The notes below the pieces were generated by a model. That model worked only from the letters and a program-made list of their open reading frames with translations, made no database searches and was not told the origin of the DNA. A stretch of DNA of 64,000 nt from Heterodontus francisci (Eukaryota). This document shows positions 2,895 through 61,770 of the stretch, piece after piece. How positions within the stretch are numbered: the first letter of the stretch is position 1; each line of letters starts with the position of its first letter. The position numbers and the translations under genes were made by a program. The DNA is taken from NCBI RefSeq assembly GCF_036365525.1, contig NC_090377.1, forward strand, positions 96,713,141 to 96,777,140. The letters run 5' to 3'.

Positions 2895-3164
2895 CTGAAA
2901 ATATACATTTAAAATACAAGTTACCATAAAATCAAGAGTTAACATTGAGTTACCAACAAGGATTTGTCATGCAAGGTGATACTTATAGTCATCCATCTGT
3001 TAAATAAAACTAATGACTTAAAAAAAAATTGTGTCAGATCAACACCACCCAAGTATGAGGACAAGTAAACAACGTACATCCAAACAAACTGGATGAGCAA
3101 AGCACATGACAAAGTAAGATAGTAATTGTGTAAGAGAATACATGGGGCAGCAACTAGATTTATA

Positions 3165-3300
3165 CCCTCTCCTCTAAAGGCCTCCTCAAAACCTCTCGCT
3201 CCTAATCCTTCGATTACAGCTCAGTGTCAAGTTCTCCTGTCAAGCATATTGGGATTTTACTTTATTAAAGACTGTATTACTGAAGATTGTTGTTGATTTA
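3165..3300 (+). mobile_element. Degraded L2-type LINE 3' tail
   Basis: Resembles the reverse complement of the L2 tails at 8040 and 56785 (ctcagtgtcaa...ctcctgtcaagc...ttgttgttg). Confidence 0.5.
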
Positions 3301-3401
3301 CCAAAACAGTAGCGCAGAGGTTATGCACGAGTAACCCAGAGACCTGAACTAAAAATCCAGAGAGCATTCGTTCAAATCTCACCATTTGAATTACAACATA
3401 T

Positions 3402-3705
3402 GGCGGTACAGTGGCGCAGTGGTTAGCACTGCAGCCTCACAGCTCCCGGGACCCGGGTTCAATTCTGGGTTCATCCTGTGACCGCGTGGGTTTTCGCCCG
3501 GTGCTGCGGTTTCCTCCCACAGCCAAAGACTTGCAGGTGATAGGTAAATTGGCCATTGTAAATTGCCCCTAGTGCAGGTAGGTGGTAGGGAATATGGGAT
3601 TACTGAAGGGCTAGTATAAATGGGTGGTTGTTGGTCGGCACAGACTCGGTGGGCCGAAGGGCCAGTTTCAGTGCTGTATCTCTAAATAAATAAAATTTTA
3701 AAAAA
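3402..3705 (+). mobile_element. HE1-like tRNA-derived V-SINE
   Basis: A box TGGCGCAGTGG, B box GGTTCAATTC, V-core 'gcgtgggttttc...ggtttcctcccaca', CR1-like tail with (TAAA)n. Confidence 0.88.
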
Positions 3706-4108
3706 AAATTCAGTTTAAAGAAAACTGGAACCAGTAAGTGATCACCAAACTTTTGGATTATCGTAAAAATCCAACTGGTTCACTAATTTCTTCGGGGAAG
3801 GAAACCTGCCATCCTTACTCAGCTTGGCCAACATGCAGTTTCAGTCCCGCATCAATGTAGCTGACTCTGAACTGGCCTCTGAAGTGATCTAGCAAGCCAG
3901 TTATATTAAACTGCTAAGAAAGAGAAGGAATCAATCTGGATGAATCACTCAGCTGCAACCTAAGTATTAAATCGGGACACGACAAAGGCACATCCAACAC
4001 AGTCAACCTTACAAAGTTCGCCTCACCAAATTTGTTTTAATATTCGTTCTTGGGATGTGGCATTGCTGGCAAGGCCAGGATTTATTGCCCATCTCGAGAA
4101 GGTGGTAG

Positions 4109-5173: not shown

Positions 5174-8039
5174 GTAGTGAGCCGCCTTCTTGAACTGCTG
5201 CAGTCCATGTGATGGAGGTACATCCACAGTGCTGTTAGGGAGGGAGTTCCAGGATTTTGACCCAGTGACGATGAAGGAATCATGCTTTAGTTCCAAGTCA
5301 GCATGATGTGTGATTTGAAGGGGAACTTGCAGGTGGTGGCATTACCATGCATCTACTGCCCTTGTCCTTCTAGGTGATGGAGGTCGCAGATTTGCAAAGT
5401 GCTGCTGAAGGAGCAGTTGCCAAGGTTCCTTCAACAGCATCTTCCAAACCCACGATTGCTACCACCTGGGACCAGTACCAAAATGAGAGAGGTGTCCCAC
5501 AAACTAATCAAGCAACAGACTGACAAAAGCATGCTAATGGAATCATGCTGGTGTCTGAACTCCTAGGTCACCATCCCTGGGTATCTCCTGTCCCATCAGC
5601 AGCAAATACCCACTGGAGGTGGGGCAGAGTTTCCTCAATATTGACTCTAAACCAAAAAAGACTCATGATTTCAGGTCAAACAAGCACAAGGTAACTTGTA
5701 CTGATTACCACCTACCAACCTCCCTCAGCTGATGAGTCAGTCCTCCTCCATGATCACCATCACTTGAAGGAAGCATTGAGAGCAACAAGGACACAGAATA
5801 TACTCTGGGTGGGGAATATCAATATCCATCACCAACAGTGGCTCGCTAGTATCACCACTGACGTAGTTAGCCAAGTCTTGAAAAACATAGCTGCCAGACT
5901 GCACTTGTGGCAATGAGTGAGGGAACCAACATAAGGAAATAATCTACTTAACCTACTCTTAGTAAATCTACTAGTCACAGAGGCCACTCCCCAAAACAGC
6001 ATTGGTAGATGTGACCACTGCACAATCCTTGTGGAAGCCAAGCCATTTCTTCACATTGAAAACTCCCTCCATCATGTCATGTGGCACTACTACTATGCTA
6101 AATGGGATAGAACAATCTAATAGCTCAAAAATGGACATTCATGAAGCTAGGTAGGGCATCATCAGCAACAGAATTGTATACCACAATCGGTAACCTCATG
6201 GCCAGACGTATCCTTTGCATCTCCATCACCATCAAACCGGATGAACAAAGTTGGTTCAATGAGAAATGTGGACCTGCCAGCCAGGAGAAGCATCAGGTGA
6301 ACCTGAAAATGAGGTGCCAACCCAGGGAAGCTACAACACAGATGACATGCATGTTAATCAACAGAAGCTAATACCACAACCAATGGATCAGGTCAAAGCT
6401 CTGTAATCATGTCATATCCAATCATGAATGGCAATGGACAATTAAAGAACAAACAGGAAGAGAAGATGATATGCCCATCCTCACCCTCAAAGATGCCCAG
6501 CACACGGGTGCACAAAATGAGGCTCCAACATTTGCAATCATCTTCAGCGAGAAGCGAATGATCCTTCATGGATGTCAGTCTTCAGCAAATTTAATTCACT
6601 TCATGTGACATAAAGAAAAGGTTGAATGCACAGACACAGCAAAGGCTATGACTCCCGACAACATCCTGACTGTAATGCTGAAGACCGATGCTCCAGAATG
6701 TGTTGTGTGTCTAGCTAAGCTGTTCCAATACAATGACAATACTGGCATTTACTAGACAATGTGGAAAATTGCCCAGATATGCTATGTTCACAGAAAGCAG
6801 TACAGATCCAACACAGCTTACTTCTAAACAAGAAACTGATGGAAGGAGTTGTCATCAGCCCCATCACGAGCATTTAAACACCAATAATCTGATTACCTTA
6901 TCATAACCTTGTTCAAACATGCATAAACACACTTAAGGCGAGAGGACTACCCTGGACATCAAGATAGCACGAGTTTCTCTGGCAGCATCCTAGGCCCAAC
7001 TATCTTCAGCAGCTTCATCAATGACCTATCCGCCATCATAAAGTCAGAAATTGGGCTGTTCACTGATGATCGTGTAGTGTTCAGTTTCATTCACAACTTC
7101 TCAAGACAATGAAGCAGTCCATTCCCACTGGTAGTAAGACCTGGACAACAGTCAGGTTTGGATAGATAAATGGTATGTAACATTCATGCCATAGGTGTGC
7201 AAGGCAGTGAGACAGCCAAATCATCTTACTTGATGCTGAATGGCGCTTTCACCGCCGAGTTCCCCATCATTAATATCCTGGGGATCACCACTGACCAGAA
7301 ACTCAACTGAATCAGCCACTTAAATGTCACAACCACTAAATATTCTACAATCGGTGGCTCACTGACGTCCCAAAGCCTCTCTACAGCCTACAAGGCACAA
7401 GCCAGGAGCATTATGGGATACTCTCCACTTGCCTGGATGGGTAAAGCTGCAATAACACAGGCTCAACACTAACCAGGTCAAAGCAGTCTGCTTGATCAGC
7501 ACTTCATCCAGTAGCCTAAATATCAACCACTTTCACTACCAGCATATAGTGGTTGCATTGGAAAATATCTTCAGGATTCCTCACAGCAACTTCAAATCCT
7601 GCAAACTCCACCACTTAGAAGGACAAGGGCAGCAGTTGCATGGTAACACCAGCACAATCCAAGGTCCCCCTTCAAGTCACCCACCGTTCTGATTTGGACG
7701 TATATCACCGTTCCTTCATCATCAATGTGTCAACGTCCTGGAACTCCCCACCCAACAGCATGTGGGTGCATCTTCACCATACAGACTGCAGCAGTTCAAC
7801 AAGGTGGCCCATCACCACTTTCTCAGGGCAACTATGGATGGACAATAAATGCTAGCCTAGTCATCAACGCCATATCCTGAGAATCAATTTTAAAAATTGC
7901 AACATTCAGATGCCATTGTATAATTTTTTGGCTTTCTCCCCCACCTTCAACACCGATATTCACAATGGACCTGATGAAAACTAAAAAACTACAAATAGCA
8001 ATAATGCTCTGTAAGTAAAGAGTTCATTTATCAGACAAT

Positions 8040-11029: not shown

Positions 11030-11935
11030 CAGAAGGTCAGAAGTGAGGATGTTCGCTGATGATTGCGCAATGTTCAGCACCATTCGCAACTCCTCAGATA
11101 CTGAAGCAGTCCATGTAGAAATGCAGCAACACCTGGACAATATCCAGGCTTGGGCTGATAGGTGCAAGTAACAATCACACCAGGCAATGACTATCTCAAA
11201 CAAGAGAGAATCTAACCGTCTCCCCTTGACATTCAATGGCATTACCATCGCTGAATTCCCCAATATCAACATCCTGGGGTTTACCATTGACCAGAAACTG
11301 AACTGGAATAGCCATATAAATACTGTGGCTACAAGAGCAGATCAGAGGCTAGGAATCCTGTGGCAAGTAACTCATCTCCTGACTCCCCAAAGCCTGTCCA
11401 CCATCTACAAAGCACAAGTCAGGAGTGTGATGGAATACTCTCCACTTGCCTGGATAGGTGCAGCTCCAACAACACTCAAGAAGCTTGATACCATCCAGGA
11501 CAAAGCAGCCCGCTTGATTGGCACACCATTCACAAACATTCACTCCCTTCACCACCGACGCACAGTGGCAGCTGTGTGTACCATCCACAAGATGCACTGC
11601 AGCAACGCACCAAGACTCCTAAGACAGCACCTTCCAAACCCATGACCTCGACTACCTAGAAGGGCAAAGGCAGCAGGCGGGTGGGGAACACCACCATCTG
11701 CAAGTTCCCCTCCAAGTCATGCACCATCTTGACTTTGAAATATAATTGCCATTCCTTCATTGTCGCTGGGTCAAAATCTTGGAACTCGCCACCTTACAGC
11801 ACTGCGGGAGCATCTGCATCACACGGACTACAGCGGTTTAAGGCAGCGGCACACCACCACCTTCTCAAGGGCAATTAGGGATGGGCAATAAATGTTGGCC
11901 TTGCCAGCCATGCCCATATCCCATGAACGAAGAAC
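11030..11935 (+). mobile_element. LINE-A 5'-truncated copy (RT C-terminus + 3' end)
   Basis: MFADD motif and ORF 11187-11645; tail 'gggcaattagggatgggcaataaatg' as at 39430. Confidence 0.9.
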
Positions 11936-12139
11936 AAATTCTGCAAGAAATATCTTCTAGACTTTAGCTGTTAACCTTTGTACATGTTACTCTCAACACA
12001 CTATGGAAGACAGTAATAGAATGCAGTCCAAAAGCTGGATGTGATTTAAATAATTTTAAACCCAGGGGGAGTTTAACCAAGTTTCCACCTTGGGCCTGCT
12101 GGACAGATTCATCCCACCAGCTGCATTCACATAATGGTT

Positions 12140-15100: not shown

Positions 15101-16740
15101 CAACCTAGTCCGTGCTCCCAGTCCCATTCCTATCCACCTTTCTATTATCTTGTTCACTATTACTTTTTTGTCATCACTATAAATTACCGTCGACTGACTG
15201 AATCTAGTCGCTACGTCTACAAGTGTAGAAGAAACATGTTTCTGTCTTTATCCCATATCTTCAAGTCCCTTGCTAATGGGAAACTCACTATGGGTCGCGG
15301 TGGCGTCCTCCTGTATTTTATTTTACAGATGTCACATTTTTCACTGATATCTTTGATAAGTTTAGTGTAGTCATGATCTATTATCCCTGCATCTTTTAAC
15401 AGAATCTTCAACCTACGACAAGATGGATGTGCAAACTGTCGATGTAGTTTTGAAATAATTTGCCTTTTCTCCTTTAAATCCCAGTCTCCGGATGTCATTA
15501 ATAATTGTTTAACATCCAGCTTAGAGAGGTTAGGTTTCGCTGAAGGAATACAATAACGTCCCGGCTGCGTAAACCACAAAGCTACAGATTTCCCAAAGGC
15601 AATCGCCTTATCATGTTCCATATCCAAATTCATCAGAGCCTTTTTCATAGACAGTTTACTTAACGGCAAAGGTAATTCACTGGATACTACATCCATACTA
15701 ATAAAATGGTTTACCCCTGCTATTTTGCACGGAATTACCACTCTTTTTAGTGATTTCAATGTGTTATCATCCCCAAACCTGAAACAGGTAGAACGGTTAT
15801 ATTCTTTGACCTTATTTCAGTCTCCTCCTTACTCAAAGAACCCATGTAACACCTTAATCAGTCCATTCCACACACTGTGGACGTACACCCACTGTCTAGT
15901 ACCGCGCAACTGAACGAATCTGCGACTAGGACACTCGTTACCAGACTGAAGCTTCTCGTGACCAGTACAATTCCTTTTGATTAGTCAGTAGCGTCATCCT
16001 CGCCTTCTGAACCTTCCACGTCATGTGTCATCTCAAAAACCCTGTTATTCCTTTTTGGACAGTACAACGCATAGTGATACTTTGAGTCACATCGGAAACA
16101 CCTGTGACCACCCCTTGGTTATTCCTGGGGTGCATCCTTCTGCCACAATTATCTAATTCCAGCCGTCTGTGATAGCTGCCAAAAGGGTCTCTATCCTCAT
16201 TCGTTTTGTGTGTGTTTCTCCTTTCGTACTGACGTTTGGGCCCCATACTTGAACAGTCTTGGAAAGCTGCTTGCATTGTATCCTCCATCTTTGGTGTCAC
16301 CGCTGAAGAGCCCATCTGTGCCATGTATGCGGCTGAAAAGGAATTTCTTCTCCAAATTTTTTTGGGGGCGTCAGACATCTGATCAAAAAGCGTATCTCTT
16401 TCTTTGAATCTAACTCCGGTTAATACCAAGAGCCTATCCATGTTTGATATCCTAGCAGAGTCCAACAATTTGAAGGCAAGTACTGATCTAGGAATGTCCA
16501 AGCAGAATCGCTGCAACCTTGCATTTTTCTAAATTTATCAAAGTCCGACCACACCTCATAGGGACTCAATAAGTCATCTTTCATATAAATTTTATCCATA
16601 AATTTCAAGAGTTTGTCCAAACCTTCCTCATTGTCCAAATGATGAGCCTCTAGCTCTGAGAACACTTTGCCCCTAATCTTGCTTCTGGTGGGAAGTGAAA
16701 GTACAAGGGCTATTCCTTGCTTCCTTTTTAGTAAAGACGC
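12140..16740 (-). mobile_element. Ty1/Copia LTR-retrotransposon internal region (gag-PR-IN-RT-RH), frameshifted, no LTRs visible
   Basis: Zn knuckle CFRCDSKYHYALYC (~16060-16100); protease VLDSGC (~15890); IN HRQFAH...CDIC and TDHGGEF; RT KAKARLVARGF, VDLKAAFLQG, HMDDF; RNase H FSDTSHAN. IN precedes RT. Confidence 0.92.
13986..14306 (-). mobile_element. HE1-like V-SINE inserted in Copia pol
   Basis: Reverse complement of the 3402-3705 family, with A/B boxes and (TAAA)n tail. Confidence 0.9.
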
Positions 16741-18418
16741 TGGTCCAGTTAAGTTTCTGGTGAATCGTAACCACCAGCATGTTGATGGTGGAGAATTCAG
16801 CAAAGGTAATGTTGTTGAATGTTGAGGGTAGTTGGTTAGATTCTCTCTTGTTGGAGACGGTCATTGCCTGGCACTTATGTGGTGCAAATGTTATTTGCTA
16901 CTCATCAGTCCAAGCCTGAAAGTTGTTCAGGTCTTGTTGCATGCAGGCATGGATTGTTTCAATATCTGAGGAGTTGCGAATGGCACTGAACACTGTGCAA
17001 TGATCAGTGAAAGCCCTCATTTTCGATACTCTGATGGGGGAAAGGTCATTGATGATGCAGCTGAAGATAGTCAGGCCTAGGACAATAATTTGAAGAACTC
17101 CTGCAGTGATGTCCTGGGACTGAGATAATCAGCCTCCAAGAACCACAACCAACTTCCTTTGTGTTCGGTATGACTCCAAGCACTGGAGAGTTTTCCCCTT
17201 GATTCTACTGACTTTATTTTTTCTAGGGCTCCTTGATGCCGTACTTAAATGCCTTGATGTCGAAGGCAGTCACACTCACCTCACCTCTGGAATTCAGCTC
17301 TATAGTCCATATTCGGACCAAGGCTGTAATGAAGTCTGAAGTTAAGAGGCCCTGGAAAAACCCATACTGAACATTGGTGAGCAGGTTATTGATGACCAAT
17401 TGCCACTTGATAGCACTGCCAATGACACCTTCCATTACTTTGCTGATGACAGCAAGTAGACTGATGGGGTGGCAATCGGCTGGATTGGATTTGTCCTGCT
17501 TTTTGTGGACAAAGACATATCTGAGAAATTTTCCACATTGTTGGGTAGATGCCAGTGTTTTAGCTGCACTGGGAAAGCTTGCCTAGGGGTGCAGCTATTC
17601 TGGACCACAAGTCTTCAGTACTACAGCTGGGATGTTGTCGGGGCCCATCGCCTTTGTTGTATCCATTGCCTTCAGCTGCTTTTTGATATCATGTCAGTGA
17701 ATTGAACTGGCTGAAGACTGGCATCTGCGATGTTGGGGGCCTCAAGAGGAGGCAGATTGATCATCCGCTCAACATTCCTGGCTGAAGATGGTTACAAATG
17801 CTTCAGCCTTGTCTTTTGTACTGATGTTCTGGGCTCCCTCATCATGGAGTAAGAGAATGTTTGTGGAATCTGATTAGTTGTTTAATTGCCCACCACCATT
17901 CACAACTGGATGTGGCTGGACTGCAGAGCTTTAATTTGATCGTTGGTTGTGGGATCGCTTAGATCTGTCGATAACATGTTGCTTCCGCTGTTTAGTATGC
18001 ATGTAAGTCCTGTGTTGCAGTTTCACCAGGTTGGAACCTCATTTTTAGGCATGCCGAATGCTGCTCCCAAGCATGTTCTCCTACAATCGTCATCAAACCA
18101 AGGTTGTTCCCCTGGCTTGATGGTAATGGTAAAGTGAGGAATATGCCAGGCCATGAGGTTACAGTTTGTGGTTGAAGGTGATTCTGCTGCTGCTGGTCCA
18201 CAGTGCCTCATAGATGCCCAATTTTGAGCTGCTAGATCTGTTCTGAATCTATCCCATTTAGTGCCACACAACACAATGGAGGATGTCCTCAGTGTGAAGA
18301 CAGGCATTCGTCTCCTCAAGGACTGTGCTGTGTCATGAACAGATGCATCTGTGCCAGGTAGATTGGTGAGGACGAGGTCAAGTGGATTTTTCCCTCTTGT
18401 TGGTTCTCTCACTACCTG
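16741..18418 (-). mobile_element. LINE-A internal fragment
   Basis: REPTRGKNPLDLVLTN (APE C-terminus) through RT; homologous to 37166-38870. Confidence 0.88.
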
Positions 18419-19857
18419 ATGAGCATAATCATGAAAAAGGACAAAGATAAAACAGGAGTAAAAGTTCTAAATTGGGGGAAGGTAAATTTTAAGAATCTGA
18501 GAGGTGACCTGGCGAAAGTGGACTGGATACAGCTACTTGAAGGAAGATCAGTGGCAAACCAGTGGGACGCATTCAAAAGCGAGATACTATAGGCACAACG
18601 TAGGCATATCCCCACAAAGATAAAGGGTGGTACTGCCAAATCTAGAACCCCCTGGTTATCTAGAAACTGATAGGGTAAGATAAAGCAGAAAAAGAAAGCT
18701 TATGACGATCACAAAAATCTTCATACTTTAGAAAGCCTAGAGCAGTATAGAAAGTGCAGGGGTGAAGTAAGAAAGGAAATTAGAAAAGCAAAGAAAGGAC
18801 ATGAAAAATTATTGGCAGGTAAAATCAAGGAAAACCCGAAGATGCTTTATCAGTACATTAAGAGCAAGAGGATAACTAAGGAAAGGGTAGGGCCTATCAG
18901 AGATGTACAAGGCAGCTTATGCGTGGATGAAGAAGATGTGGGCAGGATTCTTAATGAGTTTTTTGTCTCTGTCTTCACAAAGGAGAGGGTTGATGTGGAA
19001 TGTAGACATTGTAGTTAAAGAGGAGCATGAAATATTAGATATAATAAGCATAATGAAAGAGGAAGTACAAGAGGGTCTGAGATCCTTGAAAGTGGATAAA
19101 TCGCCAGGGCCGGATGGATTGCATCTTAGGTTGTCAAGGAAGCCAGGGAGGAATTAGCAGATGCGCTAAGGATCATCTTCAAATCCTCACTAGATACAGG
19201 AGAGGTACCAGACAATTGGCGGTCTGCGAACGTTGTACCATTGTTTAAAAAGGGTACAAGGGATAGGCCAAACAGTTACAGGCTGGTCAGTCTGACCTCG
19301 GTGATGGGTAAATTGTTAAAATCTATTCTGAGGGACAGGATAAACTGCCATTTAGAAAGGCATGGATTAAACAGGAACAAAAACAAGAAATGCTGGATTC
19401 ACTCAGCAGGTCTGGCAGCATCTGTGGAAAGAGAAGCAGAGTTAACGTTTCGGGTCAGTGACCCTTCTTCGGAACTGACAAATATTAGAAAAGTCACAGA
19501 TTATAAACAAGTGAGGTGGGGGTTGGGCAAGAGATAACAAAGGAGAAGGTGCAGATTGGACCAGGCCACATAGCTGAACAAAAGGTCACGGAGCAAAGGC
19601 AAACAATATGTTAATGGTGTGTTGAAAGACAAAGCATTAGTACAGATTAGGTGTGAATATACTGAATATTGAACAGCAGCAAGTGCAAACCTGAAGAAAA
19701 ACAACCTGAAAAAAACAGTGGGTAAGCAAACTGAACAAACTAAGATGAAATGAAATAAATGCAAAAAAAGATTGTAAAAAATGTAAAAAGGAATGTAAAA
19801 AAAAAGGAAGACAAAATATCTAAAAATGACTAAAAATGAAAGTAAAGTGGGGGGCTG

Positions 19858-20858
19858 TCATGCTCTGAAATTATTGAACTCAATGTTCAGTCCGGCAGGC
19901 TGTAGTGTGCCTAATCGGTAGATGAGATGCTGTTCCTCGAGCTTGCGTTGATGTTCACTGGAACACTGCAGCAATCCCAGGACAGAGATGTGAGCATGAG
20001 AGCAGGGGGGAGTGTTGAAATGGCAAGCAACCGGAAGCTCAGGGTCCTGCTTGCGGACTGAGCGGAGATGTTCCGCAAAGCGGTCACCCAGTCTGCGCTT
20101 GGTCTCCCCAATGTAGAGGAGACCACACTGTGAGCAGCGAATACAGTAAACTACATTGAAAGAAGTACAAGTAAATCGCTGCTTCACCTGAAAGGAGTGT
20201 TTGGGGCCTGGGATAGTGAGGAGAGAGGAGGTAAATGGGCAGGTATTACACCTCCTGCGATTGCAAGGGAAGGTGCCCTGGGAAGGGGACGAGGTGGTGG
20301 GGGTAATGGAGGAGTGGACCAGGGTGTCGCGGAGGGAACGATCCCTTCGGAATGCTGACAGGGGAAGGGAGGGGAAGATGTGACTGGTAGTGGCATCACG
20401 CTGGAGGTGGCGAAAATGGCGGAGGATGATCCTTTGGATATGGAGGCTGGTGGGATGAAAAGTGAGGACAAGGTGAACCCTGTCACGGTTCTGGGAGGGA
20501 GGGGAAGGGGTGAGGGTAGAGGTGCGGGGAATGGGTCGGACACGGTTGAGGGCCCTGTCAACCACAGTGGGGGGAAATCCTCGGTTGAGGAAAAAGGAGG
20601 TCATATCAGAAGCACCGTCATGGAAGGTAGCATCATCAGAGCAGATGCGTCGGAGACGGAGAAACTGGGAGAATGGAATGGAGTCCTTACAGGAGGTAGG
20701 GTGTGAAGAAGTGTAGTCGAGGTAGCTGTGGGAGTCAGTGGGCTTATAATGGATATTGGTAGACAACCTATCCCCAGAGATGGAGACAGAGAAGTCGAGG
20801 AAGGGAAGGGAAGTGTCAGAGATGGACCATGTAAAGGTGAGAGAAGGGTGGAAATTGG
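19858..20858 (-). pseudogene. PLE ORF fragment: RT C-terminus/thumb + GIY-YIG endonuclease; uninterrupted but 5'-truncated
   Basis: LPFLD, YKPTDSHSYL, CNRRRCNTC, NVVYCIRC...LYIGETKR. Confidence 0.92.
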
Positions 20859-21337
20859 ACATCAACGCAAGCTCGAGGAACAGCATCTCATCTACCGATT
20901 AGGCACACTACAGCCTGCCGGACTGAACATTGAGTTCAATAATTTCAGAGCATGACAGCCCCCCACTTTACTTTCATTTTTAGTCATTTTTAGATATTTT
21001 GTCTTCCTTTTTTTTTTACATTCCTTTTTACATTTTTTACAATCTTTTTTTGCATTTATTTCATTTCATCTTAGTTTGTTCAGTTTGCTTACCCACTGTT
21101 TTTTTCAGGTTGTTTTTCTTCAGGTTTGCACTTGCTGCTGTTCAATATTCAGTATATTCACACCTAATCTGTACTAATGCTTTGTCTTTCAACACACCAT
21201 TAACATATTGTTTGCCTTTGCTCCGTGACCTTTTGGTCAGCTATGTGGCCTGGTCCAATCTGCACCTTCTCCTTTGTTATCTCTTGCCCAACCCCCACCT
21301 CACTTGTTTATAATCTGTGACTTTTCTAATATTTGTC

Positions 21338-36265: not shown

Positions 36266-36451
36266 AAATACTTTTAAGCCATTTTCAGAGCTTTGGATAT
36301 ATGATTGGAAGCACCAGGGCACAGTTACAGTACAAATTAGAATTTGAAAAGCAACATTCAAAAAACATTCAATATCCTAAAACAAAAACATAACAGTTGA
36401 ACAGCAACGCCATCCTTATTGCCAAGAATCAACACCATTCTTCTTGCCTTC

Positions 36452-39400
36452 CCTAATGTCCTTTAGGGAAGGAAATCTGCTGTCCTTACCTGGTCTGGCC
36501 GACATGTGACTCCAGACCCACAGCAATGTGGTTGACTCTTACATGCCCTCTGAAATAGCCCAGCAAGCCACTCAGTTGTATCTAACTGCTATGAAGTCAA
36601 TAAAAAGGAATGAAACCAGACGGACCACCCGGCATCGACCTAGGCACCGGAAACGACAAGGGCAAACCCAGCCTCGTCGACCCTGCAAAGTCCTAACATC
36701 TGGGTGCTTGTGCCAACGTTGGGAGAGCTGTCCCACAGACTAGTCAAGCAACAGCCTGACCTAGTCATACTCACAGAATCATAACTTACAGACAATGTCC
36801 TAGACACCACCATCACCATCCCCGGGTATGTCCTGTCCCACCGGCAGGACAGACCCAACAGAGGTGGCAGCACAGTGGCATACAGTAGGGAGAGTGTTGG
36901 CCTGGGAGTCCTCAACATTGACTCCAGACCCCATGAAGTCTCATGGCATCAGGTCAAACATAGGCAAGGAAACCTTCAGCTGATTACCACCTACTGCCCT
37001 CCCTCAGCTGAGGAGTCAGTACTCCTCCATGTTGAACACCACTTGGAGGAAGCACTGAGGGTGGGGGACTTCAATGTCCATTACTAAGAGTGGCTCGGTA
37101 GCACCACTACTGACTGAGCTGGCCGAGTCCTAAAGGACATAACTGCTAGACTGGGTCTGCAGCAGGTGGTCAGGGAACCAACAAGAGGGAAAAACATACT
37201 TGACCTCGTCCTCACCAATCTGCCTGCTGCAGATGCATCTGTCCAAGACAGTATTGGTAGGAGTGACCACTGCACAGTCCTTGTGGAGACGAAGTCCCGC
37301 CTTCACATTGAGGATACTGTCCATTGTGTTGTGTGGCATTATCACCATGCTAAATGGGATAGATTTCGAACAGATCTAGCAATGCAAAACTGGGCATCCA
37401 CGAGGCGCTGTGGGCCATCAGCAGCAGCAGAATTGTACTCAACCACAATCTGTAACGTCATGGCCCGGCATATCCCCCACTCTACCATGAGTCCAGGAGA
37501 TCAACCCTGGTTCAATGAAGAGTGCAGGAGGGCATGCCAGGAACAGCACCAGGCATACCTCAAAATGAGGTGTCAACCTGGTGAAGCGACAACACAGGAC
37601 TACTTGTGTGCCAAACTGCGTAAGCAGCATGCAATAGAAAGAGCTAAGCGATCCCATAACCAATGGATCAGATCTAAGCTCTGCAGTCCTGCCACATCCA
37701 GCCGTGAATGGTGGTGGACAATTAAACAACTAACTGGAGAAGGTGGTTCCACAAATATCCCCATCCTCAATGATGGGGGAGCCCAGCACATTAGTGTGAA
37801 AGACAAGGCTGAAGCATTTGCAACAATCTTCAGCCGGAAGTGCCGAGTTGATGATCCATCTTGGCCTCCTCCTGAAGTCTCCAGCAACACAGATGCCAGA
37901 TTTCAGCCAATTCGATTCACCCCGTGTGATATCAAGAAACGACTGAAGGCACTGGATACTGCAAAGGCGATGGGCCCTGAAAATATTTCAGCAATAGTAC
38001 TGAAGACCTGTGCTCCAGACTTGCCGCGCCCCTAGCCAAGCTGTTCCAGTGCAGCTATAACACTGGCATCTAACCAGTAATGTGGAAAATTGCCCGGGTA
38101 TGTCCTGTACACAAAAAGCAGGACCAGTCCAACCAGGCCAATTACCGCCCCATCAGTCTACTCTCAACCATCAGTAAAGTGATGGAAGGTGTCATCAACA
38201 GTGCCATCAAGCAGCACTTGCTTAGCAATAACCTGCTCAGTGAAGCTCAGTTTGGGTTCCGCCAGGGCCACTCAGCTCCTGACCTCATCACAGCCTTGGT
38301 TCAAACATGGACAAAAGATCTGAACTCAAGAGGTGAGGTAAGAGTGACTGCACTTGATATCAAGTCAGCACTTGACCGAGTATGGCATCAAGCAGCCCTA
38401 GCAAAACTAGAGTCAATGGGATTCAGGGGGAAAGCTCTCTGCTGGTTAGAGTCCTACCTGACACAAACAAAGATGGTTCTGGTTGTTGGAGGTCAATCAT
38501 CTGAGCTCCAGGACATCACTGCAGGAATTCCTCAGGGTAGTGTCCTCGGCCCAACCATCTTCAGCTGCTTCATCAATGACCTTCCTTCAATCATAAGGTC
38601 AGAAGTGGGGATGTTCGCTGATGATTGCACAATGTTCAGCACCATTCGTGACCCCTCAGATAATGAAGCAGTCAGTGTAGAAATGCAGCAAGACTTGGAC
38701 AATATTCAGGCTTGGGTTGATAAGTGGCAAGTAACATTTGTGCCATACAAGTGCCAGGCAATGACCATCTCCAACAAGAGAGAAACTAACCATCTCCCCA
38801 TGACATTCAATGGCATTACCATCGCTGAATCCCCCACTATCAATATCAATTGACCAGAAATTGAACTGGAGTAGCCATATAAATACCATGGCTACAAGAG
38901 CAGGTCAGAGGCTAGGAATCCGGCAGTGAGTAACTCATCTCCTGACTCCCCAAAGCCTGTCCACCATCTACAAGGCACAAGTCAGGAGTGTGATGGAATA
39001 CTCTCCACTTGCCTGGATGGGTGCAGCTCCAACAACACTCAAGAAGCTCAACACCATCCAGGACAAAGCAGCCTGCTTGATTGGTACCCCATCTACCAAC
39101 ATTCACTTCCTCCACCACCGACGCACAGTGGCAGCAGTGTGTACCATCTACAAGATGCACTGCAGCAACGCACCAAGGCTCCTTGGACAGCACCTTCCAA
39201 ACCCGCGACCTCTACCAACTAGAAGGACAAGCGCAGCAAATGCATGGGAACACAACCACCTGCAAGTTCCCCTCCAAGCCACACACCATCCTGACTTGGA
39301 ACTATATTGCTGTTCCTTCACTGTCGCTGGATCAAAATCCTGGAACTCCCTTCCTAACAGCACTGTGGGTGTACCTACCCAACATGGACTGCAGCGGTTC

Positions 39401-39500
39401 AAGAAGGCAGCTCACCACCACCTTCTCAGGGGCAATTAGGGATGGGCAATAAATGCTGCCTAGCCAGCGACGCCCACGTCCCATGAATGAATAAAAAAAA
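36452..39500 (+). mobile_element. LINE-A, best-preserved copy (leader, Arg-rich N-terminus, APE, RT, 3' tail); a few stops and frameshifts
   Basis: ILTES, GDFN, SDH (APE); YRPISLL, QFGFR, GIPQGSVLGP, MFADD (RT); ends 'catgaatgaataaaaaaaa'. Confidence 0.93.
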
Positions 39501-47034: not shown

Positions 47035-50000
47035 GGGGTGGAATCTCAGGACCTAGTCCCTAGCGCAACAACAGGACCATTTCCTGGACGGGAACTCAAC
47101 CCTCTGAGTAACGGGCCTTCCGGCTGCTCTATGCAGGGGCCAACCAATTAAGTGAGCCCCTCCAGGATTGCCGTCCAATTGGGGAGAGCGAGTGGAATGA
47201 AGCATCAAAAGCACAAATAAAAGGATCAGTATTTAAAAGGACACCGCTACAATTACAGTGTCAGCATTGTGCAGTGTAGTTTGCTCAGTGAGAGGCACAA
47301 ACGAGCATAACAGATGGGAAACAGGGAAGGCTGCCCCCACGCTTCACAGACACATCCCTGGAGGTGATATTGGAAGCAGTCGGGGAATAAAGGCAGGTGC
47401 TTTTTCCAGAAGATGGCAGGAGAAGGCCAGTCAGCTTCACCAAAGAGGCTTGGCTGGAGGTTACAGAGGAGGTTAGCAGTCAAAATGTGGTGCAGAGAAT
47501 GTGGATCCAGTGCAGGTTCAATGATCTCGAGATCTGGCAAGGTGACTGCCATGCAACTCTCAGCTGGCAGCCATCACTCTCTATTTTATTAACAGTCTCC
47601 AGCACAGATATCCTCTGAGGCACACAATCTGCAGCCACACAGAATGTCTCCCTAAACTCTACCTTAACTCTCCATCTACCCGGACAGCACTGACACTCAA
47701 CCTCAATATACTGACCTAGTGCTCCCCATCTCACAGTGATCCCCCTCAAATGTCATGCCTATTTCCTGAGCAAAGACTGTATTCCTAATAGTCCTAACAC
47801 TCTGCCTTTTCTCACTGCAGAAGAAGGGAGCCGACAACCAGGAGAGGTGGAGAAATGGGGTGGAGTTACATTCTTGGGTCATCCTGATGGCAATGGAGGA
47901 GGATGCCCTGTAAATCAGCAGAGCTGCACCATGCAGGCTGTTGTTAATGGAAAGATGGGGATGCACAGAGACTGGGTGAAAGCATTATATATCACACTGC
48001 CACTTGGCACTGACCTTTGTTGCCAATTTATTAAACATGATGTTCTGCAAAATGCTAGGGATTGATCTCTCTGTCAATTAAGTACAGCACTAATGAAAGT
48101 CTTTCATCTGCTGCAGGAGCATTGCTGGAGGGGCACCAAGAGATGAAGGAGGAGGCAGTGCAGTCTTCAGAGGAGGAGCATCACTCTGAAGAAGCACGAT
48201 CACATGACTCAAGCGCACCCTACACCAGCACAAATACATTCACTTCAATGTGTCCAGCATCATAGATAGAACAAGTGGCACAAGATGAGGAGCATTTCAT
48301 ATGTGAGCAGGAGCAGGTGCTTGAGGGTCCCAATCAGGGGCCTGAGGACATCTCCTGCCATGCTCAAATAGACACAGATGCTGAGCCTCGGGGGTCATAC
48401 ACAAAATGGGTACTTCTGGAGCAGCAAAGAGAAGTGTGGGGGCATCTGCCAGAATTTCCAGAGGCTATGAGCACCCTTGCACTGAAGATGGAGGAGTCTA
48501 TCTGCATCCTGTCACCATGACCGTGGCTGCTCCTGCACAGATGTGGGTGGGGCAATCTTTAGCAGGATCCTCATGGACTCCACAACCCAAAGAACGTCCG
48601 CCATGGGCATCTAATATATTGGAGTGTGGAAATGAGCTGACTGCCTCTAGTTCTGTTCCAGCCACAGGGTAGCACCACATAGGAGAGAGAGAAATAGCTT
48701 GCAGAAATGGTGTTAGTGCACACAGGGAATCATATGGGTACATATTCCAATGTTAGTGTCACATGAGGTATGTGTTGTTGTTCCCTGATGAATGTCATGG
48801 TGTTGTTTCTGTTCCATTCCACATTGACCATGGATAGGTGAAAGTAGCGTTGTGGTATGAGACTCTTGGATGGCAATGTAAGGCTGAAAATGGAATGTTT
48901 TTTGCAACGATTAGATTTATATGTTGGAAGTGGGTGTTGGGTGTGGCTATACTGTTTGCCATAGAGCTATGGATCGTACAAGAGCAATGCTACGTGCACT
49001 GTACTCAGCTAATGCATGCCTGGATGAAGGCCTTTTGGGCCTCTCTGGCATGTAAGTCAACAGCAGCAGGCATCAGCAGCACCTCTGGATGGTCATGCTC
49101 CGCTGGGCCCTCCTCCTCAGTCATCCTCCTCCAAGGAAGCCAGGCTCTCCCCACCTTTGTCTGCTGCCACTTCCATTCCTCATTGAAGTGCCAAGCTGTG
49201 CAGGGCACAGCGCACCACCACCATCCAGGCGACTCTTGCCAGCCCACATTGAAGGACAACCCCACATTGGTCAAGGCATTATAACTGCATTTTTAGCAAG
49301 TCAATGTCACCCAAGAGCTAACCACTGTGGATGACTGGTGGTGTGAAGAGTTGGGGCACCCGAGACTGACGAAGGATAAGAAGTCATGGAAGCTCCCTGG
49401 AAACTTCATACACACCTTTTTTTTTTAAAGGGATGGGACAGTTGCTGGCAAGGCCACTATTTATTGGCCATCTCTCATTGCCCTTGAGAAGGTGGTGGTG
49501 AGCTGCAATTCATGTGGTACAAGTACACCCTCAGTGCTGTTATGTAGGGAGTTTCAGGAATTTGACCCAGTGACAGTGAAGTAACGGCAATACAGTTTCA
49601 AGTCAGGACGGTGCGTGACATGGGGGGAACTGTGGGTGGTGGTGTTCCCATGCGTCTGCTGCCCCTCTTCTACATGGTAGAGGTTGTGGGTTTGGAAGGT
49701 GCTGTTGAAGGAGCCTTGGCGAGTTGCTGCAGTGCATCTAGTAGATGATGCCCAGTGCTGCCACTGTGCAACAGTGGTGGAGGGAGTGAATGTATAAAGG
49801 TGGTGGATGGGATGCCGATCAAGCGGGCTGCTTTGCCCTCGATGGTGTCAAGCATCTTGAGTGTTGTTGGAGCTGCACTCATTCAGGCAGGTGGAGAATG
49901 TTCCATCACACTCCTAACTTGTGCCTTGTAGATGGTGGACAGGCTTTGAGGAGTCAGGAGGCGAGTTATTCACTGCGGAATTCCAAGGCTCTGACCTGCT

Positions 50001-52032
50001 CTTGTAGCCATATGGCTGGCCTAGTTAAGTTTCTGGTCAATGGTAACCCCCAGGATGTTGATGGTGGGGGATTCAGCAGCAGTAATGTCATTGAACATCA
50101 AGGTGGCCATTGCCTAGCACTTGTGTGGCACGAATGTTGCTTGCCACTTACCAGCCCAAGCCTGAATGCTGTCCAGGTTTTGCTGCATGCAGGCACGGAT
50201 TGCTTCAGTCTCTAAGGAGTTGCGAATCATACAGAATACTGCAATCATCACTGGACATATCCATTTCAAATCTTAAATTGGAGGGAAGAAAATTGATGAA
50301 ACAACTGAAGATGGTTGGGCCTAGAACACTACCATGGGAACTTCTGCAGCAATGTCCTAGGGCTGAAATGATTGGCCTATAACAACCATAACCATCTTTC
50401 TTTGTGCTAGCTATGACTCCAACCAGTGAAGAGTTTCCCCCTAATTTCAATCAACTTTAATTTTGCTAGGGCTCCTTGAGGTCACACTCAGACAAATGCT
50501 GCCTTGATGTCAAGGGCAGTCACTCTCACCTCATGTCTAAAATTCAGCTCTTTTGTCCATATTTGGAACAAAAATGCCATGAGGTTTGGCCGAGTGGCCC
50601 TGGTGGAACAAATTGAGCATTGGTCAGCAAGTTATTGCTGAGCAAGTGCCGCTTGATACAGCTGTCGATGACACCTTCCATCACTTTGCTGATGACTGAG
50701 AGTAGACTGATGGGGCGGAAATCGGCCAGATTCGATTTGTCCTGCTTTCTGTGGACAGGAAATACCTGGGCAATTTTCCACATTACCTGGTAGATGCCAG
50801 TGTTGTAGCTGTACAGGACAGCTTGGCTAGGGGTGCAGCTAGTTTCTGCAGTATCCTCTTGCGGTGGTGGTATACTAGTTGCACATTGAAAGAGTGGAAC
50901 CCCTTCCATTTCACAAATGCATCTGGCTGTTCCAATGGAGCCTTAATCACCACATGGATGCAGTCCATTAAACCCTTGACCTGAGGAAATCCTGCCAGGG
51001 AGACAACAGCCCTCTGTGCTTGACTGGATGCATCAGTTTCAAACTAATGTACTGCTATGCCCTCCCAAACAAGGCATCCGTCACCTGGCTGATGCAGTGT
51101 GAACTGCAGATTGAGAGATCGGCAGACGTCAGCAGCTGAGTCAGACGCAAAAGAATTGAAAGCTACAGTCACCTTGACTGTCACGGATGGTGGGTGGCCA
51201 TCTGCTCCTATTGGCCTGAGGTCTTCCTCCAAGAGGGCTCGGAGATCTGCAATTACCTGACACGAATGCCACAGCCTTAAGAGGCACTGCTACTCTGAGA
51301 GGTCCAGGAAGCTGACCCTTGGCCTATCGACACTGTGCAGAGGATAGTGCCTGCTTCTAGGCACTGTGCTGTGGCCATCCTCTCTGTTGTGTCCAGATGC
51401 CTCTGGCTGTGTTGTCTGCTGCAGGTACTGTTCCTCTTGCAGTTGCTGTCCCTGCTGCTGAGCTGAAGGGTGCTGCAACAAATATTCAGTGGCCCACTCT
51501 ACTTCAGAATAAGTGGATCCCAAGTCACTGTGTAAGTTTCCAGGCGCATTAGTAAAAAGCCCCATTTAGGTATCCAAGTCTCCTCAATGAAATGGCACCA
51601 AGTTGCTTTTTCCAAACAGAATCTATTATATTTGCCTGAAGAACTTGCTCCTGTCAGCACAAGCCTTTGACAATGGCTGGCCTAAGGCTTGCTGCTTTCC
51701 CCCTTTATACTGGTCATTTAACGTAGGTTTCAGCCCTCAATGACTTTCCGCTGTGCACTCGCCTTCTCTAACTTGCCAAGTTGCCGACACAGCGTGTGAC
51801 CTGTGTGCCGCCAGGAAAGAAGCATTGCAAGCGTAAAAAGGCTCTTGATTGCCACTTTAATTGCCTCAATTGGCTCAGCCATGGGGGTTTCCAACTTCAC
51901 TCCCCGGCACCCCCTGGGAAAGGAAGGAAGGAGGCAGGAAGATGTTGGGATACTATCCCAATGGCAATTTCTGCTGTTTCCCCCACCCCCCAAATCAATC
52001 CCACCTCCACTGGCCTGGGAAAATTCCACTCC
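47035..52032. mobile_element. Decayed autonomous PIF/Harbinger transposon 2
   Basis: Imperfect TIR GGGGTGGAAT / ATTCCACTCC; Myb/SANT remnant on + (~47320-47540, LFPEDGRR...AWLEVTEEVS...QCRFNDL); transposase on - (MDCIHVVIKAP...KGFHSFNVQLV at 50856-51300, continuing at ~49010-49415). Confidence 0.82.
49418..50855 (-). mobile_element. LINE-A 3' half inserted in the Harbinger 2 transposase
   Basis: WKIAQVFPVHRKQ...FRPISLL, LINE-A tail and poly-A. Confidence 0.88.
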
Positions 52033-59479: not shown

Positions 59480-61500
59480 CAAGGTCATCCAGGCACCACA
59501 GGAAAAGGCCATGCCACAATTCAAGTCTCTTTTGCCATTTAATTAGATCATGGCTGATCTGTACCTCAACTCCATTTATGTGCTATAGTCCCATATTCCA
59601 CAATATACTGAACCAATCAAAAAACTACTGATCTCAGTCTTGAAAATTTCAAGTTTCAGTTTCTCTGGATTTACCTGATTGAATCCCTTTATCATTTAAA
59701 CACCTTGATTAAATCAGTTCTCAATGTTCTAAACTCAAGGAAATACAAACCAATTTATGCAGCTTGTCATAATTTAACCCTTAAAGCGCTGGTATTTTGC
59801 TGAATCTGCACTTATAGCCCTTTCAAAGTCAATACATTGCCCCGAGCCTCGGTGCCCAAAACTGAATGCAGTCTTTCAGATCGGGTCTAACTTAGGTTCC
59901 GTACAACTGAAGCATCAGCAGTGAATTCCAAACCCCCTGAAATAAAAGCCAACATTTCATTAGCTTTTCTGAATCCTTTTTGTAGCATGCATTAGCTTAG
60001 AGTCATTTGTGTTCATAGACAGCTAAATCCCTTTGCCCCATCACAGTACCTCGTCTCTCTAAGTATGAATGGAGGAATGTGACTAGTGATGTTCCGCAGG
60101 GATCAGCGCTGGGACCTTTGCTGTTTGTAGTATATATAAATGATTTGGAGGAAAACGTAGCTGGTCTGATTAATAAGTTTGCAGACGACACAAAGGTTGG
60201 TGGAGTTGCGGATAGTGATGAGGATTGTCAGAGGATGCAGCAGTATATAGATCGGTTGGAGACTTGGGCGGAGAAATGGCAGATGGAGTTTAATCCGGAC
60301 AAATGTGAGGTAATGCATTTTGGAAGATCTAATACAGGTGAGATGTACACAGTAAATGGCAGAACCCTTACGAGTATTGACAGGCAGAGAGATCTGGGCG
60401 TACAGGTCGACAGATCACTGAAAGTGGCAACGCAGGTGATTAAGGTAGTCATGAAGGCATACGGCATGCTTGCCTTCATCGGTCGGGGTATAGAGTATAA
60501 AAATTGGCAAGTCATGCTGCAGCTGTACAGAACCTTAGTTAGGCCACACTTGGAATGTTGCGTACAATTCTGGTCACCACACTACCAGAAGGATGTGGAG
60601 GCTTTGGAGAGGGCACAGAAGAGGTTTACCAGGATGTTGCCTGGTCTGGAGGGTATTAGCTATGAGGAGTGGATGGATAAACTTGGATTGTTTTCACTGG
60701 AACGACGGAGGTGGAGGGGCGACATGATAGAGGTTTACAAAATTATGAGTGGCATGGACAGAGTGGATAGTCAGAAGCTTTTACCCAGGGTGGAAGAGTC
60801 AGTTACTAGAGGACATAGGTTTAAGGTGCGAGGGGCAAAGTTTAGAGGGGATGTGCAGGGCAAGTTTGTTTTTTTTACATAGGGTGGTGAGTGCCTGGAA
60901 TTTGCTGCCGGGGGAGGTGGTGGAAGCAGGTACGACAGAAGGTTTTAGTTTAGACAGGCATCAAGATTGGCGCAGGCTTGGAGTGCCGAATGGCCTGTTC
61001 CTGTGCTGTTCTTTGTTCTTTATTCTGATTTACCTTTCTCAGATCCAAAGTCAAAAACCTCACACTTCATCACATTGCAATCCATCTGCCATAGTTTTGC
61101 TTTTAATTTGTCTATGCCCCTTTGTAACTGCCACTTCCCATCCACACAACTCCTAACCATACCACCTACAAACTTGGATATACAACTTCAAGTCATTAAA
61201 ATGTGTGTGTACTGATGAGGCCGCAGTACAGATCTCTCAGAAACACCATTCGTCACTTCCTGACAATCAGAGAACAAACTATCGCTACTCTTTATCTCCT
61301 ACCTCCTAAGTAATTACCAACCCACATCACAAGGTTACCTCCAATTCTGTGCACTCACATTTTTCCTAATAATCTCTTGGGCTGAACTTTATCAAATACC
61401 ATTTGGATGTGCATACAAACAACATCCATGAATACGGGGCTACCACAATACGAGTGACCTCCTCAAAAAATTCAACTGGATCAGTCATGCGTGATCTGTC
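59480..61500 (-). mobile_element. Old CR1 remnant interrupted by a younger CR1
   Basis: Decayed RT C-terminus at 59480-60060 and 61040-61500 (DPVEFFEEVT). Confidence 0.6.
60065..61015 (+). mobile_element. Young CR1 3' fragment
   Basis: Open 267-aa frame with VPQGSALGP, KFADD, LVRPHLECCVQFWSP. Confidence 0.92.
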
Positions 61501-61504
61501 CTCC

Positions 61505-61770
61505 CCAAATCCACACTGACAATATACAGTTGGGAGGGAGTGCCCTGGGAGTCCCCAGCATTGACTCCAGACCACATGAAGTCTCAGGGCATCAAATCAA
61601 ACATTGGCCAGGAAATATCCTGATTACCACCTATCGTACTCCCTCAGCTAACGAGTCAGTACTCCTCCATGTTGAACACCACCAGGAAGAAGCACTGAGA
61701 GTAGCAAAGACAATGTACTTTGGGTAGGAGACTTTCACATTCATGACTAAGAGTGGCTCGGTAACACCAC
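61505..61770 (+). mobile_element. LINE-A APE fragment
   Basis: LGVPSIDSRPHEVS...VLLHVEHH, homologous to 36890-37105. Confidence 0.8.

Follow-up and report, generated by a model that had tools for sequence, protein, structure and literature searches.

A tRNA-headed, T-run-poor Zenon LINE of sharks and rays as a candidate Pol III transcription unit

The 64-kb window of Heterodontus francisci DNA analysed here contains a LINE copy that raises an unusual question, namely whether a protein-coding retrotransposon may be transcribed by Pol III. The family to which the copy belongs combines a tRNA-derived promoter with a coding strand that nearly lacks the T-runs at which Pol III stops, and is thus likely to be a Pol III-made, protein-coding mobile gene, although that polymerase is credited with short non-coding RNAs only.

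Copies in the window and family identity

The initial annotation placed the copy at 36452..39500. The location is correct, but the true start is 36449; the copy is truncated at about element nt 191 and the head is absent (Table 1). It is 91% identical to a full-length natural copy (L261) over 3104 columns. Its 3' UTR holds an AATAAA at 39448-39453, a short GAAT repeat and a single T at 39492. An A/B-box head reported at 3305 is present, but it is degenerate and split by a SINE at 3402-3700, which presumably resembles shark HE1. The link between head and body is demonstrated by other genomic copies, and not by this window. The body of this old copy ends with TTTT (7888-7891) followed by A5.

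Table 1. Element copies, their parts and an inserted repeat in the window
Feature	Position	Strand	Remarks
Degenerate tRNA-like head, old full-length copy	3305..3401	+	local alignment scores 79; best of 500 shuffles, 70
Separate tRNA-headed SINE inserted in the old copy's head	3402..3700	+	second copy 13995-14304(-), 84% identical
5' UTR of old copy	3711..4029	+	69% identity to element nt 168-445; one TTTT at 3751
Inverted 3' fragment nested in old copy	5174..5414	-	together with 4035-4093 and 5419-5467
Body of old copy	5456..7896	+	68-69% identity; internal TTTT absent
3' fragment	11030..11938	+	87% identity; no TTTT
Older internal fragment	16744..18418	-	79% identity; one sense T5
5'-truncated elasmobranch Zenon-1 LINE copy	36449..39500	+	element nt ~191-3294; frameshifts and stops
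5'-UTR block, 3' part (element nt ~190-330)	36449..36590	+	strongly conserved; retained in SINE derivative
APE-type endonuclease domain remnant	36695..37350	+	stops and deletions; tblastn to natural 937-aa ORF of L256
Reverse transcriptase domain (FADD)	38074..38850	+	Pfam RVT_1 E=3e-35
Stop codon, ~55-nt 3' UTR, A8 tail	39437..39500	+	sequence, ORF end, tail survey
Older 3' fragment	49417..50844	-	79% identity; one T5 and two T4 on sense strand
Endonuclease-region fragment	61523..61770	+	81% identity

Judged by its sequence, the element is the elasmobranch Zenon LINE, which is already described: Zenon-1 was named in 2026 by Stuart et al. (PMC13343379). The published elements are 3.24-3.31 kb long, lack ORF1, encode APE and RT and end in an A tail; the published stretches compared reveal no sequence difference from the element in the window. 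The CarCar, RhiTyp, ScyCan, SquAca and HypSab Zenon elements belong to the same family, their 5' ~400 nt being alike by eye. Neither 'tRNA' nor 'polymerase' occurs in the main text of PMC13343379, so the head, the T-run purge, the missing AUG and the SINE derivative were not found described there, nor was Pol III. In the supplement of that paper, all seven shark and ray consensuses begin with the tRNA head and lack TTTT in the ~400 nt visible (by eye), while two hagfish consensuses and one from coelacanth have no head and contain TTTT.

A FastTree phylogeny of 196 of 229 sequences places the element in an RT clade of 76 members (support 99), separate from host CR1 and distinct from canonical CR1 and L2. 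The tree held no named references, and the name Zenon follows from identity to published Zenon 5' ends by eye. The shark protein clusters with proteins of lancelet, butterfly and beetle, apart from CR1 proper (support 99). Zenon elements outside elasmobranchs (Lepidoptera, hagfish, coelacanth, invertebrates) share the single ORF, the A tail and an internally deleted derivative, but unlike the shark-ray element they have no tRNA head or Pol III promoter, and T-runs occur in them (17, 25 and 23 TTTT in L125, L295 and L364). Persaeus, the deleted derivative of a butterfly Zenon, is described as having no Pol III promoter (PMC6740152). The viral contigs searched hold no relatives. The literature searched, which did not extend to Repbase Reports, Dfam or most subscription papers, describes no autonomous LINE that carries a tRNA head or is transcribed by Pol III.

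The head, the single frame and the SINE derivative

Full-length genomic copies, about 3.29 kb long, begin with a tRNA-Thr-like head that contains an A box and a B box, followed by one APE-RT frame and an A tail. The head had been suspected from a single copy, and other genomic copies confirm it as a fixed part of full-length elements. In Pol III type 2 promoters the internal A box lies ~10-20 nt past the transcription start, with a B box downstream. The element has this geometry: it starts 10 nt before the A box, and the A- and B-box starts lie 64 nt apart. The 5' start is sharp. About 195 nt upstream of the query are common to 26-27 of the top 30 matches, and there similarity ends. Among 40 copies chosen by RT similarity, 13 reach the head and 27 are truncated at scattered sites. 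In 43 heads found with a strict pattern, G occupies the three positions preceding T/G in 41, 40 and 36 cases, and the base just upstream of them varies. ARAGORN called tRNA-Thr at five of ten loci (four AGT, one TGT), tRNA-Ile at one and nothing at four; on relatives, at a relaxed threshold, it returned only noise. The B-box core TT is retained in 18/20 and 20/20 old copies, and the variable arm is less conserved. Candidate target-site duplications were only 6-7 nt long, which is chance level.

SINE2 elements have such a tRNA-derived head with A and B boxes, and are short and non-coding. With 3.29 kb and a 975-codon frame the element itself is neither, whereas its ~420-nt derivative is both. 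The heads of MetaSINEs are likewise tRNA-derived and most like tRNA-Thr, and the shark Deu element SacSINE1 also has a tRNA-derived head, but an L2 tail. Identity with MetaSINE/Deu was rejected by eye, the body being unlike the Meta and Deu regions of those bivalve SINE alignments of the PMC4824008 supplement that were compared.

The head could instead be an RNase P-type signal for 5' processing of host read-through RNA, comparable to the HDV-like ribozyme of R2, the T-runs having been lost for another reason such as reverse-transcriptase slippage on U-runs. The head does fold partly like a tRNA (z -0.9 and -2.0), and ORF1-less LINEs often free their 5' end by cleavage (PMC12203849). We regard this as very improbable. 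Copies begin ~3 nt before the first base of the tRNA, the acceptor stem pairs poorly by eye, cleavage by RNase Z would presumably remove the ORF, and host CR1 and other LINEs tolerate U-runs. An Rfam search of 801 nt (to E<=1) gave only a tRNA-like partial match and no ribozyme, HDV-like or other, although diverged ones could escape.

The single ORF encodes both an APE endonuclease and an RT (Pfam PF03372, PF14529 and PF00078 on the natural 937-aa ORF of L256). Across 29 copies, the residues found most often at the catalytic sites are those of the endonuclease motifs N, TES, GDFN and SDH. ORF1 is absent, as the endonuclease motif has only ~440 nt in front of it. There is no in-frame AUG before the endonuclease; the first place at which ATG is the commonest in-frame codon is 239 codons into the frame, past the endonuclease. 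An AUG-started overlapping frame at nt ~359, first suggested as the true N-terminus by position-wise variation, was rejected once CpG sites were removed (2/15 shared changes synonymous, against 6/15 in the endonuclease frame). A 1073-aa open frame turned out to join a truncated copy, in frame, with CR1 sequence upstream of it. An AUG-GCC-UAG mini-frame is in frame with the ORF in 67/79 copies and, by eye, in three of five published species consensuses (not RhiTyp or SquAca-1).

Ahead of the endonuclease motif, element nt 191-340 are conserved at 0.74-0.97 per 10 nt in old copies, which for the most part exceeds conservation where the coding region begins. There is no fold signal above shuffles in the 5' UTR (z -0.1 to +0.8). 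This most conserved block sits downstream of the B box. It could therefore be argued that Pol II transcribes the LINE, as it does LINEs generally (PMC5786205), using a promoter inside the conserved 5' UTR; the head would then have been captured from a SINE, and the low T content of the body would reflect inherited composition and selection against U-rich splicing, cleavage and decay signals. We consider this unlikely. The 5' end is set relative to the A box as in a Pol III type 2 promoter. Two A(A/T)TAAA motifs lie within the first 135 nt in 8/8 copies checked, although the ORF has only 0-1 internal AATAAA. About seven upstream ATGs, with no AUG in frame before the endonuclease, make a poor substrate for cap-dependent scanning. 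Nor do the copies show an excess of an added G where the 5' end joins the flank (position -5 is G in 12/43), which is a weak argument.

The A tail was examined at 99 3' ends, of which 72 were scored as T(1-6)A(n) and 27 were unscorable. The T-run before the tail, a possible oligo-T terminator, is T4-6 in 18 of the 72 ends and T1 in 42. Post-insertion creep may produce it, and the terminal T-run length does trade off with A-tail length as in such creep (PMC9599045). T+ SINEs such as B2, Can, Dip and Ves share with the element a tRNA head, A and B boxes, a T-run-free body, AATAAA and a short A tail preceded by a T-run whose length varies; they differ in being <600 nt and non-coding, while the element has 3.3 kb and encodes its own APE-RT (PMC9599045). 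The abundant ~420-nt SINE derivative consists of the element's head and tail, joined at nt 329, and is itself poor in T-runs (TTT 41 vs 114 and TTTT 4 vs 30, 25 loci).

The abundance of a SINE with the same head and tail permits a further reading: Pol III transcribed and shaped the active ancestors only in part, or today makes only the SINE derivative, with the coding RNA arising as Pol II read-through. The youngest copies differ by 3-7% from the column majority, and none of those fetched showed a frame running unbroken from head to stop, which suits this reading. It is nevertheless improbable, since the ORF interior, missing from the SINE, is as free of T-runs as the SINE itself, and read-through RNA would lack a single sharp 5' end.

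T-run depletion on the sense strand

The initial counts for 36452..39500 (+) hold: there is no TTTT and exactly seven TTT; of 11 runs of A4 or longer, ten are internal (about ten had been given) and one is the tail; and T amounts to 20.8%, against 22% by eye. Several T4 had been expected by chance. Base shuffles agree (4.4, P=0.010), but dinucleotide shuffles do not (2.0, P=0.12). TTT falls below both (21.8, P<0.001, and 13.0, P=0.012), and 5-nt windows with at least four T number 3 against 23.8, and none of 1000 shuffles was as low. TTTT is also missing from 5470-7885 and 11030-11935 as described, and the CR1 sense TTTT at 60318 and 60691 are real. The picture had however omitted the older copies at 16744-18418(-) and 49417-50844(-), which carry sense T-runs.

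Across the family the depletion is strong. In 28 young copies (89.5 kb, sense strand), aligned and pooled after 11 of 39 fetched copies were dropped as rearranged or short, TTTT occurs 10 times against 134 expected and T5 never against 28, whereas A4, C4 and G4 runs are not avoided (O/E 0.87-1.03). Since these copies are not independent of each other, they amount to an effective sample of roughly one sequence plus the older subfamilies. The mapped TTTT in young copies are private mutations, and older divergence classes have a TTTT O/E of 0.17-0.35. Nowhere in the alignment do four consecutive columns have T as the commonest letter. The commonest-letter sequence (3289 columns) thus has no T4, and it holds only four 4-of-5-T windows against 23 expected, one of them in the ORF. 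These windows cover the interrupted terminators described in PMC3141230, so the sense strand is nearly devoid of both kinds of internal terminator.

The control comparisons proposed with the initial annotation mostly bore out the depletion. It is absent in host CR1 (sense TTTT 261 vs 161 expected, O/E 1.6) and in 145 other LINE loci, where the O/E of 4-of-5-T windows has a minimum of 0.56 and a median of 1.15, against 0.05 in the element's ORF (the panel had 160 loci, 15 of which lacked a 400-aa ORF and were left out). Depletion of TTT and of interrupted T-runs exceeds that in shuffles, but TTTT absence alone does not beat synonymous permutation of the element's own codons (P=0.07-0.20). TTTT absence alone is equally unremarkable against dinucleotide shuffles (P 0.11-0.15), which counts against the Pol III reading. 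The proposed autonomous Pol III-type LINE is thus borne out in its sequence predictions, the head and the T-run depletion, and not by TTTT absence taken singly.

Depletion at synonymous sites was visible in the natural 937-aa ORF with CpG contexts excluded: TTT across codon junctions arises at 0/38 synonymous chances, against 101/432 reference contexts (p=6.6e-5). Applied to A, to CR1 and to L125, the same test showed none. T flanks 0/18 commonest-codon Phe sites. Mixed pyrimidine tracts are not depleted in the ORF, which speaks against U-rich Pol II signals as the target. Other observations point the opposite way. One junction test for C-runs is also significant (NVC before CC, p=0.005), TT dinucleotides are mildly low throughout the element (O/E 0.84), and TTT is depleted although nearly inactive as a terminator (PMC3141230). 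L370, with no known head, has one TTTT against 10 (P=0.0005, the best of 160 panel loci), and L193, also with no known head, has a junction ratio of 0.19. L297, which is closely related to Zenon and is missing its own 5' end, is likewise 20% T with one TTTT in 2.86 kb, as inherited composition would have it. Its 4-of-5-T O/E of 0.56 is however ten times that of the element. The Zenon clade holds only ~4 panel loci.

Proposed Pol III transcription and its meaning

We think it probable that elasmobranch Zenon is transcribed end to end by Pol III and translated cap-independently. The RNA data examined comprise 24 runs, all of them contigs and one on record as RNA; the four compared with the element show no readable start, strand or polymerase. 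TFIIIC would bind the internal A and B boxes of the head. Pol III would then read ~3.3 kb of element because canonical and interrupted terminators have been selected against, and would stop at a T-run at or past the 3' end. Natural transcripts as long as 3.3 kb are not known for Pol III. Like T+ SINE transcripts, the RNA may acquire a poly(A) tail through the AATAAA that lies ~40 nt upstream. The strongly conserved block of the 5' UTR (nt ~190-330) probably serves to start translation at a non-AUG codon or to allow leaky read-through of the mini-frame. The element protein would then copy the RNA by target-primed reverse transcription, which is established for APE LINEs. The element likely arose in the ancestor of sharks and rays, when template switching gave an ORF1-less Zenon the head of a SINE in place of its own 5' end.

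Parts of this scheme have precedents. R2, like the element, has a single ORF; its RNA is of non-Pol II origin, uncapped and translated by cap-independent initiation (PMC12203849). Promoters of the tRNA type drive translatable reporters after TTTT removal (PMC8223928). With slightly less assurance, we favour regarding the element as an autonomous SINE of sharks and rays: a Pol III-transcribed 3.3-kb coding gene with a tRNA promoter, its terminators purged over all elasmobranch history, that would need neither a cap nor an in-frame AUG and would yield a SINE by internal deletion.

By the textbook division, coding LINEs are made by Pol II and non-coding SINEs by Pol III. In normal biology, moreover, Pol III is regarded as producing no mRNA (PMC8223928). 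If a very abundant vertebrate LINE is made by Pol III, neither rule holds; together with the Pol I-derived R2, such a LINE would mean that autonomous retrotransposons use all three polymerases. It would offer a natural test system for kilobase-scale Pol III processivity and polyadenylation of Pol III RNA, would suit the study of cap-independent, non-AUG initiation in vertebrates, and might serve as an expression cassette. It would also open a direct path to the birth of SINEs, in which deletion of the ORF leaves a ready-made SINE.

Identity and structure of the element

In the tree, the Heterodontus francisci element (a Zenon-1 LINE) falls within a 76-member clade (support 99), separate from the host CR1. 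Its homologues, lancelet and butterfly among them, each consist of one EN-RT protein (~935-1050 aa, 35-44% identity), and many of these lie on 3.4-4-kb contigs. A sevengill-shark protein holds a piece 85% identical to the element. In PMC13343379, Zenon is described as ORF1-less and A-tailed and was recovered from five elasmobranchs, hagfish, and coelacanth. That paper states that no repeat repository contains the elasmobranch forms; its main text has zero occurrences of "tRNA" and "polymerase". A whale-shark preprint tallies CR1-Zenon-like LINEs in its text. The family is already known; its expression mode was not found in the literature searched.

The animal's own 6.0-Gb genome was searched with the 5' part, giving 9826 first-look candidates, of which 40 were scored and 30 loci returned. 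In these 30 loci the common sequence reaches ~195 nt upstream of the window-copy start and then ends; the window copy is therefore 5'-truncated. The element is ~3.29 kb long, and 28 of the 39 fetched copies are near full length. It has a sharp G-rich 5' start, an A box beginning 10 nt after it and a B box beginning 64 nt beyond the start of the A box; ARAGORN called this head tRNA-Thr in 5 of 10 loci. A single frame of 975 codons carries the APE and RT domains. Downstream of it come ~55 nt of 3' UTR that include AATAAA, then a short GAAT repeat, a run of 1-6 T and finally a short A tail. Young copies are 3-7% off the column majority (mean 4.3%). No unbroken head-to-stop frame was seen among the fetched copies, the longest true frame having 937 aa. 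From 138 scored, forty copies were also chosen by RT protein similarity (20 with long frames or top scores and 20 further top hits); 13 of them extend to the head, and the other 27 are truncated at scattered points.

The A/B-box head that the initial annotation placed at 3305 does belong to one old full-length copy, but not to a continuous one, as later insertions have split it. Element nt 190-330, in the 5' UTR, is the best-conserved stretch in old copies, more so than the coding region, and is almost invariant across published shark and ray consensuses. The block matched nothing in Rfam and showed no stable fold; it is a candidate translation-entry or RT-recognition element.

Features of the window (Copia-like and Penelope-like elements identified by eye)
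Feature	Position	Strand	Remarks
Old full-length Zenon copy	3305-4029 + 5456-7896		TTTT absent at 5470-7885
tRNA-headed SINE with CR1-type tail	3402-3700 and 13995-14304		Presumably HE1-like; the 3402-3700 copy interrupts the head of the old Zenon copy
Zenon copy	11030-11935		TTTT absent
Copia-like LTR retrotransposon remnants	12486-16860	-	Decayed; protease, integrase, RT, RNase H-like frames
Penelope-like element	19501-21313	-	346-aa RT/GIY-YIG-like frame, repeated ends; inside CR1
Window copy (LINE-A)	36449-39500	+	5'-truncated
Conserved 5'-UTR block	36449-36590		Element nt ~190-330
AUG-GCC-UAG mini-frame	~36555-36565		Element nt ~304-312; mutated in this copy
CR1	60019-60882	+	TTTT at 60318, 60691, 60779

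Scarcity of T runs on the sense strand

The window copy (36452-39500, + strand) contains 0 TTTT, 7 TTT, and 11 A4+ runs at 20.8% T, in close agreement with the initial annotation (~22% T by eye). The absence of TTTT from two other copies and its presence in neighbouring CR1 were likewise confirmed (see table); two further older copies in the window, absent from that annotation, have one and three sense T4+ runs, respectively. For this single copy, the lack of TTTT is significant against base shuffles (P=0.010) but not against dinucleotide shuffles (P=0.12). TTT is depleted under both (P<0.001 and P=0.012). Counting stretches of five bases that hold four or more T gives 3 vs 23.8 expected, below all 1000 shuffles; observed/expected values for the other bases are 62/80 (A), 69/69 (C), and 37/33 (G).

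In 28 pooled young copies (89.5 kb), TTT has an O/E of 0.42, TTTT occurs 10 times vs 134 expected, and T5 0 vs 28, compared with O/E values of 0.87, 0.88, and 1.03 for A4, C4, and G4. The consensus is free of sense T4, as predicted: no four consecutive columns have T commonest, compared with 16 such runs for A, 13 for C, and 7 for G. TTTT occurring in young copies represents private changes. In older classes its O/E is 0.17 (80-88% identity), 0.35 (72-80%), and 0.26 (<72%), as decay would give.

Because copies share ancestry, single-sequence tests weigh more. Synonymous permutation of three natural ORFs (916-937 codons) upheld depletion beyond codon-shuffled controls for TTT (5-6 vs 13-14, P<=0.001) but not for TTTT alone (0-1 vs 2.3-2.8, P 0.07-0.20); pyrimidine tracts of 7 or 9 showed no depletion in these ORFs. 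At codon junctions TTT was created at 0/38 synonymous chances vs 101/432 in reference contexts (p=6.6e-5). The junction test gave no comparable effect on A-runs; one of two tests on C was significant (p=0.005). Across 73 long homologues Phe averages 4.3% (sd 1.1); in the element protein it is 2.0%, and the lancelet protein has even less. T adjoins 0 of 18 Phe sites.

Host CR1 shows no depletion (sense TTTT 261 vs 161 expected; 30 loci, 60 kb). Among 80 metagenome LINE loci, none was depleted beyond P=0.036. In a second set of 80 LINE loci, from animal DNA in prokaryote assemblies, pooled TTTT was 1067 vs 1008; these contigs (L295-L374) occur in many prokaryote genome assemblies as host contamination. 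The outliers in this second set were L370 (TTTT 1 vs 10) and L297, a Zenon relative (1 vs 3.7). L370:3001-4896 is a partial LINE of another clade with no head visible, and its shortage of TTTT is probably a chance extreme in a set of 160 loci. Interrupted terminators are active according to PMC3141230, and are captured by counting 5-nt windows with at least four T. This O/E is 0.05 for the element ORF vs a lowest of 0.56 and a median of 1.15 in 145 scorable panel loci, which are not independent (many from few hosts, only about four Zenon-clade).

Transcription by Pol III as the favoured reading

By eye, seven shark and ray consensuses in PMC13343379 (CarCar, RhiTyp, ScyCan, HypSab, SquAca 1-3) open with the same head and have no TTTT within their first 400 characters, whereas over that length EptBur 1-2 and LatCha lack the head and have TTTT. 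Judged from sequence, Pol III transcription is probably the best explanation, because a promoter-shaped head marks the precise 5' end in sharks and a ray alike, and because the coding sequence has lost Pol III stop signals in a strand- and base-specific manner. Pol II transcription with the head as a relic is unlikely, partial or historical Pol III use is very unlikely, and the reading in which the head serves in processing is most improbable.

In a ~420-nt derivative, element nt 1-329 are followed directly by the final ~90 nt, with one junction in common (25 loci compared, from 1296 candidates), and contigs of four sequencing runs examined have the same joint. This SINE is an internal positive control and shows TTT at an O/E of 0.36 and TTTT 4 vs 30. 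The derivative loci (L375-L399, e.g. L379:1244-1660) are 75-88% identical to young LINE copies, and no description of the family was found in the literature searched.

T4-6 precedes the A tail in 18 of 72 scorable ends; with tails of at least 4 A counted, other T-A junctions have it in 5%. The excess is gone for tails of at least 7 A, and longer T-runs go with shorter A tails. This fits the lengthening of terminators that PMC9599045 describes in T+ SINEs. The terminal T-run pattern alone cannot show Pol III termination.

Translation and other Zenon 5' ends

About seven ATGs lie within the first 300 nt. A TAG two codons after a conserved ATG closes the frame upstream in 61 of 79 copies, the first commonest in-frame ATG falls after the endonuclease, and, with CpG changes removed, the frame in which an Arg-rich leader evolves is that of the endonuclease; therefore the protein would need non-AUG initiation or read-through. 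The conserved AUG-GCC-UAG mini-frame, in strong context immediately upstream of the long ORF, is mostly in frame with it. R2 is a precedent for uncapped single-ORF retrotransposon RNA (PMC12203849), and Pol III reporters get translated (PMC8223928).

The 5' UTR of the closest metagenome Zenon relative (L125:95-500) is T-rich, ~1 kb long and includes a structured-looking segment. This segment presumably resembles RTE-type 5' ends. The L125 5' UTR suggests a different 5' module in other Zenons.
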